A DNA stretch of 13,071 nucleotides, taken from positions 1 through 13,071 of IMG/VR virus record IMGVR_UViG_2681813316_000016; one strand, written 5' to 3'. The number at the start of each line of letters is the position of its first letter. The first letter of the stretch is position 1. Source of the stretch: a virus. Lineage: Duplodnaviria; Heunggongvirae; Uroviricota; Caudoviricetes. Both the position numbers and the translations under genes were made by a program. This document shows, in pieces, positions 812 to 9,714 of this stretch. The notes below the pieces were generated by a model that worked only from the letters and a program-made list of their open reading frames with translations, ran no database searches and was not told the DNA's origin.

Positions 812-1420
812 ATGGTCACTCAGCTCGCATTCCGCGATGTAAAATTCACTCCTATAAATCACAACAACCAGATCTGGTTTACCAGCAAAGAATTGGCGGC
901 AGCATTAAAATATGCCAGCACCAAAGCAGTAACCGACATCTACAACAAAAATATTGATGAGTTTACTGACGGAATGTCTCAGGTCGTCGAATCAACGACC
1001 TCAGGAAATTATCGTAAGAAGACTCGCATTTTCTCCCTCCGTGGCGCCCATCTGATCGCCATGTTCGCCCGCACTCCTGTGGCCAAAGAATTCCGCCGCT
1101 GGGTGCTGGATATTCTCGATCGAGAAATTCAACAATCCCCAATCACAAAACAATTCACTGATAACGAACTTTGCACACTTGCTTGGTTATGGCGGGCAAG
1201 TGACACAATGTTAACCGCTTGCCAAAACGTCACTCCGCTTCTTCAGGTAGCAAAACACCGCGAAGCCGGTCGCTTCACTTCAATCGAACAAGAATATCCC
1301 CGGATACTCAATAAGGCACAGGCAATCCTTGCCAGAGAAACGGCACATGTAAAATTCCGGCCGTGGCAGGATGATAAGTGGAGTCGAGTATTGACGCATT
1401 TACGTTCTGAACGGCTGTAA
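812..1420 (+). CDS. Bro-N domain protein (phage antirepressor / Roi-like DNA-binding protein)
   Basis: Track ORF 575..1420; N-terminus from ATG 812 (MVTQLAFRDVKFTPINHNNQIWFTSKELAAALKY...IFSLRGAHLIAMFARTPVAKEFRRWVLDIL) matches the Bro-N pattern. Start uncertain (ATG 812 or 677); the 628..648 terminator-like hairpin argues against 575. Confidence 0.6.
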   Translation: MVTQLAFRDVKFTPINHNNQIWFTSKELAAALKYASTKAVTDIYNKNIDEFTDGMSQVVESTTSGNYRKKTRIFSLRGAHLIAMFARTPVAKEFRRWVLDILDREIQQSPITKQFTDNELCTLAWLWRASDTMLTACQNVTPLLQVAKHREAGRFTSIEQEYPRILNKAQAILARETAHVKFRPWQDDKWSRVLTHLRSERL

Positions 1421-1720
1421 TAAAGTTGCGGGAGAGAAATGCCGCTAGTATTTTGTAATTAATTGAATGCTGACGGTTTAATGAGAAGTCAAGAACACTA
1501 CTTGTACTATAATCGTTCGATGTTAGTGAGGGTTTGATGCAAAAAAATGAAGTGATTGACCCTAAATTTGCGCGATCAGCGACAGATTGTACACCGAGAT
1601 CCTGTGGGCTGGAATTTGCAGAGAAATACCGAAAATGATATCCAATATTGTTTTCAGTTCCTACATCATACCTGATAAGGGTATAATCATAAAAATTAGG
1701 ATAATTCAAGTTATAATTGT

Positions 1721-2137
1721 ATGAATAAAAACGACCTTGAAGCATTATCTGACACTAGGCTTAATGAGGCCAAATGCTTGCTTGATCATGGCTTTTTTCA
1801 TGGTGCATATTATCTTTGTGGGTATGCAGTTGAATGTGCATTGAAGGCCTGTATTGCCAAGTCATTTTTACAACATGAGTTTCCAAACAAAAAAGTCGTA
1901 AATGATTCATATACTCATGATTTGTCGCAACTTCTCAAAATTGCCAACTTACATCAAATTTTGATTGCTGACGCAAAAAATGATGTTTCGTTGGAGATTA
2001 ACTGGTCGGTCGTTAAAGACTGGAGCGAGCAATTTAGATACGACAATAACATAAGTAAAGCTATGGCCGAACAATTGTTTGATGCTGTAGGTGACCAAAA
2101 TTCTGGAGTTTTGAAATGGGTAAAAGCACACTGGTAA
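1721..2137 (+). CDS. HEPN-like domain protein (138 aa), first gene of an AT-rich two-gene cargo cassette
   Basis: Track ORF; core GAYYLCGYAVECALKACIAK...SYTHDLSQLLKIANL resembles the HEPN helical signature (A-x-E-x-ALKA ... H-x-L-x-x-L); no canonical R-x(4-6)-H seen; visibly AT-rich; no obvious Shine-Dalgarno at ATG 1721. Confidence 0.55.
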   Translation: MNKNDLEALSDTRLNEAKCLLDHGFFHGAYYLCGYAVECALKACIAKSFLQHEFPNKKVVNDSYTHDLSQLLKIANLHQILIADAKNDVSLEINWSVVKDWSEQFRYDNNISKAMAEQLFDAVGDQNSGVLKWVKAHW

Positions 2138-2517
2138 TCGGCAGAGAGTTGACAAAAGATATGGAATTCTCAGGTCAATTTTTGTTAAAAAAACTCAAGT
2201 TACAGAATTTAACTATTGATGCTGCAATGTGGTTTTATTACCCAGATCTATCTTGGAGATATATTTTAGTTATCAGTGACTTCTCAGAACGTGGGCCGGC
2301 AGAAATATATAGAAAAATCAGTGAGATAAATAGAAATAGCATATCAAAAAAGTATAAGCCGATACCATTAGAAGCAATTGAGGCTAAGGGGGATTCAGCT
2401 TTTGTTTATAAAATGTTAAAAGGATTTGCTAGAGTCAACGATGGTAAAGTTCGCGTTTCTAATTCTATGGTAAATGGTTTAGAAATCGTTGACTGTCTGA
2501 TCTATGAGTTAAAATAA
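2116..2517 (+). CDS. Uncharacterized protein (133 aa; 118 aa if started at ATG 2161), partner of the HEPN-like gene
   Basis: Track ORF; start 2116 overlaps upstream gene by 22 nt, with GGAG about 8 nt upstream; no recognisable nucleotidyltransferase GS..DxD motif; AT-rich; no family recognised. Confidence 0.5.
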   Translation: MGKSTLVIGRELTKDMEFSGQFLLKKLKLQNLTIDAAMWFYYPDLSWRYILVISDFSERGPAEIYRKISEINRNSISKKYKPIPLEAIEAKGDSAFVYKMLKGFARVNDGKVRVSNSMVNGLEIVDCLIYELK

Positions 2518-2588
2518 GAAATCTCTTGCTGGGTATCATTATTGTTTAAATGACTTTTGATTTTCAATAATCAACTTGTCATAATTAA

Positions 2589-4801: not shown

Positions 4802-5899
4802 TTAGAACTGGTAAACCAGACCTACAGCAACGATGTCATCAGTGCTTACACCGAGTGCTTTAGTGAAGTCATTTTTGTCAAGCAGGTTGATTTTGTAATC
4901 AACGAAAGTAGACATATTTTTGTTGAAGTAATAGGTTGCACCTACATCAACATATTTGACTAAGTCCTGATCGCCCCATACTCCAAGATCCTTACCTTTA
5001 GATTGCAGGTAAGCAACGGACGGACGCAGACCGAAATCGAACTGATATTGTGCAACAGCTTCGAAGTTTTGGGCTTTATTAGCAACGAAGTGATCAGCAA
5101 ATACAGTCATATTCTGGGTTTCAGAATAGGTAGTGGCCAGGTAAATGTTGTTAGCGTCATATTTCAGACCTGCGGCCCAAACTTCTGCATTTTTACCGGA
5201 AGCAAATACTTCAGGAAGAACTTTCCCTGCATTAACTTGAGTGTCGGTACGATCAGATTTCGCATAAGTTGCACCGATACCGAATCCTTCGTATTCATAG
5301 GTAGCAGAGAAACCGAAGCCATCACCGTTACCTTCAGTGTAGTTATCGAAATCGCTACGATCGTTTTTGCCTTGGTACTGAGCAGCAAAGTTCAGACCAT
5401 CAACCAGACCAAAGAAGTCGTTGTTACGATAGGTTGCAACACCAGTGGTGCGACCAGTCATGAACACATCTGTTTGGGTCCAGGTATCGCCACCGAATTC
5501 TGGCAGAACGTCAGTCCACGCACCGATGTCGTATGCTACACCGTAGTTACGGCCGTAATCGATGGAGCCGTAGTCACCGAATTTCAGGCCAGCGAAGGCA
5601 AGACGGGTTTTATCTTTGGAGGAACCTTGAGATTCAGCGCGGTTGCCTTTGAATTCATATTCCCACTGACCGAAACCAGTCAGTTGATCGTTGATTTGGG
5701 TTTCACCTTTGAAGCCAAGACGGGCATAAGTAGTATCACCATCATCTGCATCATTAGAGGAGAAGTAGTGCTTAGCATTAACTTTCCCGTACAGATCCAG
5801 CTTGTTACTGTCTTTATTATAAATTTCAGCTGCCTGAGCAGACATCGCCATCAGTACTGATGCAGCTACAGCAGAAATTGCCACTGTTAATTTTTTCAT
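4802..5899 (-). CDS. nmpC: Outer-membrane porin, NmpC/OmpD family (365 aa, intact, with signal peptide)
   Basis: Track ORF; signal peptide [23 protein letters not shown] then [16 protein letters not shown]...; porin-typical aromatic-rich strands and C-terminal VYQF. Confidence 0.9.
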
Positions 5900-6180
5900 C
5901 GTGAGCCCTTTTTTTTGAACTATTATTAAAAAATGATGTCACTGCGCGATAAATATTCATCTAATCAATGTGATTATTTCAAGATGTAAGTTTTGGTTTC
6001 TCGTTTAATTTGTGAAGTAGATCTCTATTTTTATCTAAACTTTTTTCTATCGAATCCTATTCATGGCTCTTGGCTGAATAAAAATAAATCTATTAGCCAA
6101 TTTATATTAATGGCTGTTATTTATAAGCGCTCTATAATTTGAAGGTTCAATTTAAACTGGCTAAAAATAACGCTGGAAAT

Positions 6181-6202
6181 TATTTGTTGGTTATTTGTTG
6201 AG
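6181..6202. repeat. Tandem 11-bp direct repeat (ttatttgttgg / ttatttgttga)
   Basis: Read directly in the AT-rich region upstream of the porin gene; one helical turn per unit suggests a protein-binding site. Confidence 0.4.
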
Positions 6203-6269
6203 ATTTGCTTATGTATTTGTAGTGGTGTTTTCAATACTCGGTAGCATTCTCGCAAATATCATTTAGTGG

Positions 6270-6297
6270 TTTACGTACGTAAAAAATTGGTTATGCT
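6270..6297 (+). promoter_or_regulatory. Candidate late promoter (pR'-like): TTTACG / TTACGT ... TATGCT
   Basis: Hexamers read by eye with about 15-16 bp spacing; only supported by the downstream plus-strand terminator and the position upstream of the lysis cassette. Confidence 0.25.
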
Positions 6298-6327
6298 GTT
6301 AAGAGTGGTTACTTCGTCACACAGCTT

Positions 6328-6360
6328 AAACCCGCCGTCGAGCGGGTTTTTCCATTTTTT
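6328..6360 (+). terminator. Intrinsic terminator (AAACCCGC / GCGGGTTT stem, 6-nt loop, T-run); candidate tR'
   Basis: Read directly; no plus-strand gene upstream, so it would end a short leader transcript, as with lambdoid tR'. Confidence 0.55.
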
Positions 6361-6472
6361 GAGTCTCGATATTAGCTGATAACCCAATACCTGAGTTATT
6401 CACTGACTCCGAGTCTGTTACGTTTCGTAGTATTCCCTCAATTTACACCCGCTTTGTCTGCGAGGTGGGGTT

Positions 6473-7809: not shown

Positions 7810-8334
7810 GTGAGACAGGCTCACTTTCTAAAAGGTAAAGACGCTATGAACCAATTAGAAGAAAAGCTTCAAAGAATGATTTCCTTATACAAGGAAGATA
7901 ACTGCCAAAAAGTTCCTGAAAACATCGCAGAGTTAATGGAATTGGCAAGTGAATTTTCTGGCATGCTTAAGTCGTCAGGTGTTCGGTCAGCGTTCTTTGT
8001 TGAAATGCTGATGCACGGCGGACTTATGACAACAATGAGACGTGTAATGGAAGACCAGAGAAAAGAACCTCCTCAGGTATACGTTTTGTCATCGAAGAAA
8101 ACTGGGCTAACCAAAATTGGGTATTCATCCAACATTCCACAACGCATCAAATCGCTTGGCAACTCTGGACCAGACTGCTTGAAGCTTGAGTGCCTGATCC
8201 CTGGTGGAAGAGAAACTGAAAACATGCTTCATCGCAAATTTGCCGCAAAGAGAAAGCACGGTGAATGGTTCGCCCTGTCCAAGGATGACATTGAGGGATT
8301 GAAATCTGTAGCGATTACTTCTGATGGCTATTAA
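7810..8334 (+). CDS. T5orf172 / GIY-YIG-like domain protein; cargo gene where lambda carries bor
   Basis: Track ORF (GTG 7810; ATG 7846 would give MNQLEEK...). C-terminal half VYVLSSKKTGLTKIGYSSNIPQRIKSL...ETENMLH...GEWF fits the T5orf172 pattern; N-terminal ~80 aa unrecognised. Confidence 0.6.
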   Translation: MRQAHFLKGKDAMNQLEEKLQRMISLYKEDNCQKVPENIAELMELASEFSGMLKSSGVRSAFFVEMLMHGGLMTTMRRVMEDQRKEPPQVYVLSSKKTGLTKIGYSSNIPQRIKSLGNSGPDCLKLECLIPGGRETENMLHRKFAAKRKHGEWFALSKDDIEGLKSVAITSDGY

Positions 8335-8720: not shown

Positions 8721-9012
8721 TGCCATCACAAAAGCCATTCCCTACAGAGTGGCTTTGATAATGGCTTATACCCTACACGGGATAACTTAACTGATATCCC
8801 TTTTAAAGGATAAAGGTATTCAAGCCTGACACATCATGCGCTGTATCGTCGCCGTATTCCCGTATTAACAGAGACCGTAGCCCGACGGGGAACTCCTTCT
8901 GCGCGAGTGTGCGGGAATAATCAAAAACGATGCACACTGGGGTTACCGGGTACACATATTTCATCATGCCAGCGAGTCCGGTTCTGGCACGGAAGAAACC
9001 GGACGTTATGAT

Positions 9013-9423
9013 TTAGTGCGGAAATATTTGTGTAGTGTTCTGAATGTTCTCAGTAAAGAGTAATGAATTATCAAAGGTATAGTAATACCTTTTGTTTTCG
9101 TGGATATTTGTAATCCATCTGAAAACCCCTGCTGTAGCAAGATTTTTCCTGTATTCGTAAAATGATAACTCTCCTGATTTGAATCCTTTTAATGTGGCTT
9201 CTATAAGGCATTTATTTTTTGAAAATCTTACATTTACAACCTTACCCTGTCCTTTTATTAAAACCGTATTATCGTTTTCAAGAACAAGATGAATATTCTC
9301 TGTGGCTAAATAGTAAATGTAATGTGAGACATTGTGACGTTTTAGTTCAGAATAAAACCAGTGATAGTTTAAATTATTTCGCACTTTATCGAATATTTGT
9401 TTAAAAATGGCAACCTGAGCCAT
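9013..9423 (-). CDS. ybcV: YbcV-like protein (DUF1398 family, 136 aa)
   Basis: Track ORF 9013..9438; ATG at 9423 ([13 protein letters not shown]...) has AAGG about 7 nt upstream; AT-rich; resembles DLP12 YbcV as recalled. Confidence 0.6.
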
Positions 9424-9427
9424 TGTA

Positions 9428-9453
9428 GTACCTTCCATGTGATATGAAGGTAC
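9428..9453 (-). promoter_or_regulatory. Inverted repeat (GTACCTTC / GAAGGTAC, 8-bp arms, 10-nt loop) enclosing the ybcV Shine-Dalgarno
   Basis: Read directly; in the minus-strand mRNA the 3' arm contains GAAGG just upstream of ATG 9423, so it could be an operator or a translation-sequestering hairpin. Confidence 0.4.
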
Positions 9454-9480
9454 CTAGTCTGCACGATTATCTAAATTGCT

Positions 9481-9714
9481 TCAATCTGGTCTGACCTGCT
9501 TTCTGAGCAATTCAGTAATGTCACTCTTTTCTTTGTTTGCTTCAGGCGAAACTCTTTTTTCTGAGCACAGTCTTCGGCGGCAGGCTTCAATGACCCAGGC
9601 TGAGAAATTCCCGGACCCTTTTTGATCAAGAGCGATGTTAATTTGTTCAATCATTTGGTTAGGAAAGCGGATGTTGCGGGTTGTTGTTCTGCGGGTTCTG
9701 TTCTTCGTTGACAT
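9481..9714 (-). CDS. ylcI: YlcI-like small protein (DUF3950), probable ribbon-helix-helix DNA-binding fold
   Basis: Track ORF; RNIRFPNQMIEQINIALDQKGSGNFSAWVIEACRRRL resembles the Arc/Mnt strand-helix-loop-helix layout; directly upstream of ybcV on the same strand. Confidence 0.55.
   Translation of the reverse strand: MSTKNRTRRTTTRNIRFPNQMIEQINIALDQKGSGNFSAWVIEACRRRLCSEKRVSPEANKEKSDITELLRKQVRPD

Follow-up and report, generated by a model that had tools for sequence, protein, structure and literature searches.

A conserved two-gene cassette pairing a HEPN protein with an unnamed partner family in a DLP12-like prophage: a candidate toxin-antitoxin or abortive-infection module

The window that we analysed, a stretch of 13,071 nucleotides (nt) from IMG/VR record IMGVR_UViG_2681813316_000016, is a DLP12-like lambdoid prophage of Escherichia coli. 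It contains a cassette of two small open reading frames (ORFs), which we call ORF A and ORF B. The ORF listing of the window places ORF A at 1721..2137 (+), with an ATG start and 138 amino acids (aa), and ORF B at 2116..2517 (+), with an ATG start and 133 aa. ORF A encodes a single-domain classical HEPN protein (HEPN-T / AF0298-like) that is predicted to be an RNase effector, and ORF B belongs to an unnamed family of alpha/beta proteins of about 130 aa and is predicted to be a non-enzymatic antitoxin or regulator. We found that A and B form an obligate, ancient two-gene unit, and we propose that this unit may be a toxin-antitoxin (TA) or abortive-infection (Abi) module.

The original prediction for this locus described two plus-strand ORFs with a 22-nt overlap, more AT-rich than their flanks, next to a Bro-N gene and ninB. 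Each of these points is borne out. The overlap lies at 2116..2137 (+), and the region 1421-2552 has a GC content of 35.2% compared with 47.3% for the rest of the window. GC content at third codon positions is 0.35 in ORF A and 0.31 in ORF B, compared with 0.58-0.61 in ybcN, rusA and the large terminase gene. From left to right, the gene order is a Bro-N/P22AR_C gene, the cassette, NinB-like ybcN, ninE, ybcO, rusA, ylcG, Q, a porin gene on the opposite strand, the lysis genes and terminase. Both ORFs are annotated in RefSeq, ORF A as WP_001038620.1 ('HEPN domain-containing protein') and ORF B as WP_000520500.1 ('hypothetical protein'), and each has hundreds of homologues across phyla; thus, they are real genes and not chance ORFs. 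The AT-rich insert also includes an upstream non-coding region (1421..1720, +; GC 0.357), which likely contains a promoter of its own, and a short 3′ tail (2518..2552, +), after which homology to the DLP12 / phage 82 backbone restarts at about 2553. In about 2660 E. coli genomes and in phage 82 (X92588), the match to the cassette query is confined to its positions ~1133-1220, which correspond to 2553-2640 of the window. In the DLP12 prophage of strain K-12, the equivalent slot is occupied by ybcK-ybcL-ybcM.

The way in which the two genes overlap is itself conserved. An overlap of exactly 22 nt was found in 69 of the 77 loci that could be scored, from many phyla, and the start codon of B lies at the equivalent position in all 69, which backs the start at 2116 given in the original prediction. 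In the window, the ATG of ORF B falls on the Trp133 codon of ORF A (A TGG), and Leu6-Val7 of ORF B (CTG GTA) falls on Trp138 and the stop codon of ORF A (TGG TAA). A Shine-Dalgarno sequence for ORF B, GGAG at 2105..2108 (+) as read from the sequence, lies 7 nt before the ORF B ATG and is embedded in codons Gly129-Val130 of ORF A (GGA GTT). Most of the 77 junctions have GGAGT or GGGGT in this position, and no member of the A family departs from G129. As both the Shine-Dalgarno sequence and the start of ORF B lie inside the 3′ end of ORF A, translation of ORF B is probably coupled to that of ORF A. The residues encoded by the overlap are conserved as well: in the A family W133 and W138 hardly vary, and in the close B family M1, L6 and V7 do not vary at all. 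Because these residues share the same 22 nt in two frames, part of this terminal conservation may reflect the overlap itself. The overlap, in which each reading frame limits what the other can encode, neatly illustrates a conserved device for translational coupling.

The pairing of the two genes is equally strict. A B-family ORF was found immediately downstream of ORF A, on the same strand, in 80 of the 80 best genome loci, and the order A then B was seen in all 41 viral contigs, down to 27% identity, and in every locus that was looked up individually. Pairing was examined from the ORF A side. Additionally, the two families have changed in step. Across 69 pairs, the pairwise identities of A and of B are correlated (Mantel r 0.73; none of 2000 permutations gave a value as high), with A the more conserved partner in 98.8% of comparisons (mean identity 48.5% for A and 32.1% for B). 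The window's own ORF B is 12-32% identical to environmental B proteins, and its ORF A is 45-56% identical to their partners. We rejected one apparent A-B fusion (locus L065, positions 4946-5777), which we put down to a single extra T at the junction (aaATTGGG for aaATGGG) in a metagenome-assembled genome (MAG), probably an assembly or sequencing error.

ORF A had been called HEPN-like on the grounds of its helical signature, with the reservation that it lacks the canonical R-x(4-6)-H motif, and a profile search had been proposed as a check. The search upheld the HEPN identity: with Pfam PF05168, ORF A scores 27.8 bits over residues 12-118 (E 3e-6), which exceeds the curated gathering score of 22, and most of its homologues carry a precomputed PF05168 match. 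The AlphaFold model of ORF A is confident (pLDDT 93.9), and its helical-bundle fold superposes on solved HEPN domains. No sequence in the PDB was detected for ORF A, even with the family profile. ORF A does not match PF01934 (DUF86), and R-x4-H is also absent.

In 41 ORF A homologues that are 45-80% identical, residues R13, E38, K42, H66, R106 and Y107 are invariant. The reservation about the motif also holds, as R106 is not followed by a His 4-6 residues later and H66 is not preceded by an Arg 4-6 residues before. Y107, the Tyr directly after R106, is invariant, but 'RY' is a general feature of PF05168. A survey of HEPN domains described an AF0298-type subclass, 'HEPN-T', which keeps the basic residue of the motif without the motif His and has a second strongly conserved His further towards the N-terminus, a possible alternative active site (PMC3710099). 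ORF A appears to have the same pattern: a motif Arg (R106), a more N-terminal His (H66) and an acidic residue in helix 2 (E38). As the departure from R-x4-6-H is the one described for this subclass, it is no bar to HEPN membership. We conclude that ORF A is a bona fide classical HEPN protein, not merely a HEPN-like one, and that H66 (the His of SYTHDL) and R106 fit the alternative active site described for AF0298-type proteins, as far as the sequence can tell. We found no RNase test of the AF0298 class itself in the literature.

ORF B is less easily placed. It matches no model in Pfam, NCBIfam or PADLOC, and in PHROGs it falls in phrog_5760, a group of unknown function. A word-indexed search with ORF B returned only 32 close relatives, from enterobacteria and Acinetobacter. 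A profile search of 1.84 billion representatives gave 798 clusters at E<=1e-3, nearly all of them stand-alone proteins of 120-150 aa. When 64 diverse members of the family were searched, none matched Pfam, and neither ORF B nor its family profile found a sequence in the PDB. We considered whether the longer family members were informative domain fusions and rejected the idea, because the extensions were only low-complexity tails and, judged by eye, one read-through into a YegP-like neighbour. The invariant residues of the family are W39, W47, G60 and Y130, and L12, G20, L27, Y65, R113 and D126 are nearly invariant. The nucleotidyltransferase signature GS...DxD, which the original prediction had reported missing from ORF B, is not seen among the conserved residues of the family either, and nor is any other catalytic constellation. 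No helix-turn-helix, ribbon-helix-helix or AbrB domain was detectable in either ORF A or ORF B.

The structural model of ORF B is compact and confident (pLDDT 89), and its topology weakly resembles that of a minimal nucleotidyltransferase (MNT). This raises the possibility that B is a degenerate, catalytically dead descendant of an MNT, and that the cassette arose by rearrangement of a HEPN-MNT system, with simple binding taking over from AMPylation as the means of neutralization. However, RimP, RbfA, BolA and uS3-type domains score nearly as high as MNT, a Foldseek search of the PDB with ORF B found nothing significant (best E 0.08), an hhalign comparison of the ORF B family with a genuine MNT profile gave a probability of 0.1%, and no match to Pfam NTP_transf_2 or Polbeta was found among the 64 family members. 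We therefore keep a degenerate MNT as a lead and not as a finding, and we consider such a descent rather unlikely. As it concerns only the origin of B, it is compatible with a TA or abortive-infection function.

The cassette appears to have the architecture of a moron with its own predicted promoter, given its low GC content (0.35 compared with 0.47), its variable presence at a fixed slot and a conserved TATAAT. In the window, this perfect −10 box lies at 1682-1687, 39 nt upstream of the ORF A ATG. It is retained at −37 to −40 from the ATG in 11 distinct enterobacterial variants, in which the rest of the upstream sequence has diverged. In most of the 11, a −35-like hexamer, TTACAA, lies 18 nt upstream of TATAAT; this hexamer is not present in the window. 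A generic consensus scan called no promoter upstream of ORF A and no cassette-specific terminator; TATAAT was missed because the −35 is weak in the window. An inverted repeat at the cassette promoter was also looked for and none was found. Just downstream of the cassette, there are a promoter-like site on the plus strand (2557-2585; TTGATT, 17 nt, CATAAT and an upstream TG) and a hairpin with a perfect 12-nt inverted repeat (2587-2619; AAGTCACCGGAG / CTCCGGTGACTT). In this shared segment, the phage 82 record annotates −35 and −10 signals and a site at which a regulator may bind. Both elements belong to the phage backbone shared with DLP12 and phage 82 and not to the cassette.

The position of the cassette allows for a second explanation. 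The cassette is part of the delayed-early rightward operon, where it separates the replication genes from Q and shares their orientation, and the nin region is rich in accessory genes that act in lytic growth. It is conceivable that in phages the module serves the lytic programme or counter-defence and is expressed from pR with the nin genes, for instance by cleaving or sequestering host RNAs or signalling nucleotides. However, a −10 box of their own is conserved in the enterobacterial copies. The Acinetobacter copy lies after the lysis genes of an unrelated prophage, adjoining its integrase and preceded by a terminator-like hairpin, outside any early operon. Furthermore, most members of the family are chromosomal, with no phage genes nearby. 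We consider a lytic or counter-defence role improbable.

The module is a widespread, autonomous cassette and not a phage-specific invention. Relatives of ORF A were found in at least 585 species-representative genomes from about 13 phyla. They occur in Acidobacteriota, Planctomycetota, Chloroflexota, Desulfobacterota, Gamma- and Betaproteobacteria, Bacteroidota, Verrucomicrobiota, Nitrospirota, Gemmatimonadota, Latescibacterota, Poribacteria and Methylomirabilota, and in one Aenigmatarchaeota MAG in which contamination is possible. The genes around the module do not recur: the 150 genes flanking 75 loci fall into 179 Pfam families, none of which was seen in more than 5 loci. Most of these neighbours are housekeeping genes, such as those for DHDPS, PrmA, EF-P and dehydrogenases. 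Among the neighbours at the 75 loci, no enrichment of defence genes (searched with PADLOC), TA genes or mobile-element genes was found. As the neighbour families are non-recurrent and show no PADLOC enrichment, there is no sign of a third component or of a defence island. At one locus the module is surrounded by PIN, HicB and Fic genes, and one MAG carries two copies of the module (loci L060 and L063). In a Bryobacterales MAG, a genuine MNT gene (locus L077, 5921-6304, +; LFGS...DYDL, with PF01909/PF18765 relatives) lies about 145 nt downstream of A-B. As it is the sole gene with an MNT motif in 88 loci, this may be a coincidence.

These chromosomal settings bear on a third explanation, in which the complex of A and B is not toxic and serves the cell or its regulation, for instance by binding RNA or nucleotides, and the HEPN domain binds a ligand, as it does in sacsin or at the C-terminus of nucleotidyltransferases. 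Most copies lie between housekeeping genes and are often co-oriented with them across very short gaps (the upstream neighbour is on the same strand in 51 of 75 loci, and the gaps have medians of 86 and 39 nt). B looks stable and globular, ORF A lacks the canonical R-x4-6-H, and HEPN-T domains are known from the literature to include non-catalytic members. However, a housekeeping complex would be expected to have a stable context and to be inherited vertically, whereas this module is sporadic over at least 13 phyla, has no conserved neighbour and occurs twice in one genome. Additionally, unrelated temperate phages have acquired it repeatedly, and the polar residues of the predicted active site (E38, H66 and R106) are strictly conserved. 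We regard a non-toxic complex as unlikely.

Among phages, E. coli and Klebsiella carry the module in the same lambdoid prophage slot, between the replication genes and the RusA/Q block. In other viral contigs its position varies; it may adjoin UmuC and an IS3 transposase, for instance, or precede terminase by a few genes. Of 5426 complete E. coli genomes, 190 have A and 190 have B, in each case as one chromosomal copy, and a cassette query covering both genes was at least 80% covered in one place in 186 E. coli genomes. The cassette lies at several positions in E. coli chromosomes: in strain E2865, for example, it is found at ~0.62 Mb, by tRNA-Arg and intD, and in several O157:H7 strains at ~1.86 Mb; thus, more than one lambdoid prophage carries it. 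The listed E. coli carriers (hits H43-H66) are mostly large genomes (5.4-5.8 Mb) from cattle and humans.

Based on these results, we propose that the cassette is an autonomous, mobile TA or abortive-infection module in which A is an RNase toxin and B is a protein antitoxin, a prediction to which we give about even chances. In our model, the cassette is carried as a prophage moron. A would dimerize and cleave RNA through the AF0298-type alternative site, with R106 acting together with H66 and helped by E38 and K42. B would be made in step with A through translational coupling, and it would bind A and keep it inactive. As B lacks a catalytic motif, this inhibition is expected to involve no enzymatic step. 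If B were lost or titrated, the RNase would be freed and growth would be arrested. Possible triggers are the shut-off of host expression by a phage, the loss of the element, or a phage product that binds B. As a result, the lysogen population could be protected from other phages, or the element could be stabilized, or both.

Several lines of evidence argue for this toxin-antitoxin model. They are the HEPN identity of A and its conserved polar residues, the strict pairing, the coupling, the co-evolution with a faster-evolving B, the basic A and acidic B that are typical of the family (median isoelectric points of 8.8 and 5.9), the sporadic and mobile spread, and the repeated capture by temperate phages. 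Features of type II TA systems in general are also present, namely two small, co-oriented, overlapping genes that are paired in 121 of 121 loci and that are scattered over unrelated contexts, including prophages of three genera and 41 viral contigs. The suggestion in the original prediction of a defence or addiction module is supported in part. Its reading of the locus was for the most part right, with two corrections: ORF A is a HEPN protein proper, and the module is widespread and not specific to phages.

It is also possible to assign the roles the other way round, with B as the toxic effector and the HEPN protein as the antitoxin or regulator. The antitoxin gene comes first in many type II systems described in the literature, and the B protein of the window is basic (isoelectric point 9.3). 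However, B is acidic across the family, evolves faster than A and has no recognizable catalytic constellation, its invariant residues being W, W, G and Y, whereas A keeps the conserved Glu/His/Arg set typical of HEPN nucleases. We consider reversed roles very unlikely.

Other observations weigh against A as an RNase toxin held in check by B. In the enterobacterial pair of the window the charges are reversed relative to what is typical of the family (68 other pairs were compared), with isoelectric points of 5.8 for A and 9.3 for B, a reversal for which our simple model does not account. As far as we found, the AF0298-type alternative R/H active site is itself a prediction. B is compact and well folded and has no DNA-binding domain, unlike most antitoxins of type II systems, which are labile and autoregulating. 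Guilt by association gives no support to a role in defence, because the neighbours outside the enterobacteria are housekeeping genes and not defence islands or mobile-element genes. Finally, no loci with B only or A only turned up to show which partner is dispensable, in a survey made from the A side in which B-only loci were not systematically sought.

A broader form of our model is more tentative, and we hold it at somewhat short of even chances. It states that the cassette represents a widespread, unnamed HEPN TA/Abi family, with an AF0298-type RNase that uses an alternative Arg/His site, a new non-enzymatic partner fold and an ancient 22-nt overlap kept across about 13 phyla. To exclude competing phages, this family would have been recruited by temperate phages whose hosts are Klebsiella, Acinetobacter and E. 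coli, the last including O157:H7 and other strains with large genomes that likely produce Shiga toxin.

The rest of the prophage contains further accessory regions. The Bro-N/P22AR_C coding sequence is 812-1420 (+) according to RefSeq, and the mechanically called 281-aa ORF from 575 is over-extended. It is directly preceded on the same strand by gathering-level Rfam matches to the Hfq-binding small RNA isrK (576-648; 61.9 bits) and to C4 antisense RNA (673-760; 82.5 bits), which singles it out as an RNA-regulated antirepressor locus. After the Rz gene, 7810-8334 (+) encodes a 174-aa protein with MUG113/T5orf172 (GIY-YIG-like) domains and a weak match to the PADLOC candidate PDC-S57 (E 7.9e-6). 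In the related prophage of strain E2865, iss and an IS3 element take the place of this region. Two more AT-rich islands were seen: one at 8951-9550, with a DUF1398 gene (9013-9438, −; E 3.3e-43) followed by a DUF3950/YlcI-like gene (9481-9714, −), and one at 5701-6450, a non-coding stretch between the OmpC/NmpC-like porin gene (4802-5899, −) and the holin gene.

As effectors, HEPN RNases play a central part in bacterial immunity and in TA systems. The classical PF05168/AF0298 class has been known only with nucleotidyltransferase partners, whereas ORF A has an obligate partner from an unnamed family of about 800 clusters, in the reverse gene order. As a HEPN two-gene module, it is new in its partner family and in its fixed, overlapping gene arrangement. 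At least 585 species have the module, and prophages of clinically important bacteria carry it. If it proves to be toxic and protective, it would reveal a new mode of neutralization for HEPN systems, make the proposed alternative HEPN active site (H66/R106) readily accessible to study in E. coli, and give a function to a protein family now called 'hypothetical'. Another HEPN module is unlikely to astonish a specialist, but this one is a worthwhile and readily testable candidate because of its obligate unnamed partner, its putative alternative site, its deeply conserved overlap and its occurrence in prophages of major pathogens.

How does the module compare with known systems? HepT/MntA, the type VII HEPN/MNT TA system (Shewanella SO_3166/3165 and Aphanizomenon HEPN-MNT), is likewise a mobile, tightly linked pair built around a small single-domain HEPN protein, and the ORF B model weakly resembles the MNT topology. 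However, HepT is of the DUF86 type with a canonical R-x4-H and, beside it, a Tyr that is AMPylated, whereas ORF A is of the PF05168 type with an alternative His. The MNT has GS...DxD and AMPylates the toxin, whereas ORF B has neither these motifs nor any profile similarity to MNT. The MNT gene lies upstream in those systems, whereas the HEPN gene comes first in 121 of 121 A-B loci (80 genome and 41 viral), so that the order is the reverse of classical MNT-HEPN pairs, as had been noted for the window. Thus, the module departs from HepT/MntA in the three defining features that we tested: the motifs of the partner, its profile and the gene order. The HEPN-T/MNT pairs of TT1696 (1ufb), AF0298 (2hsb) and ST0689 (1wol) have a HEPN protein of the same class as ORF A. 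According to the literature, their partner is an upstream MNT, whereas the ORF A family is always followed by the unnamed B family.

A further comparison is with RnlA-RnlB and LsoA-LsoB, in which a HEPN RNase toxin and a protein antitoxin, encoded on an E. coli prophage or plasmid, carry out abortive infection against T4. In these systems the gene for the HEPN toxin comes first and that for a small protein antitoxin second; this toxin-first order is all that A-B would have in common with them.

Among candidate systems, PADLOC lists PDC-M28, a phage-defence candidate, and all 41 ORF A relatives match its PDC-M28A model, a profile of 138 positions. These matches are weak and partial (best E 7.5e-12; ORF A itself E 1.8e-7, profile positions 10-108), so PDC-M28A probably represents a HEPN-T family that is related to that of ORF A but distinct from it. 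PDC-M28A is the only PADLOC model that ORF A matches, no convincing match to a PADLOC model was seen among 64 ORF B relatives, and PADLOC-DB v2 holds no system matched by both proteins. We found no mention of PDC-M28 in the literature and no description of the A-B pair.

A parallel for the proposed active site is AbiV, a lactococcal HEPN protein of abortive infection. AbiV is reported to share the position of the alternative His with AF0298-type HEPN proteins. Its RNase activity is reportedly lost in the R91A mutant, in which the motif Arg is replaced, and its closest structural relatives are AF0298 and TT1696 (bioRxiv 10.1101/2024.05.05.592566). Unlike ORF A, AbiV has 201 aa and its reported antitoxin is an RNA, and the AbiV models in Pfam and PADLOC gave no match to ORF A. 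In sum, the module is predicted to be closest in manner to the HEPN toxin-antitoxin systems, yet it is a member of no named one.
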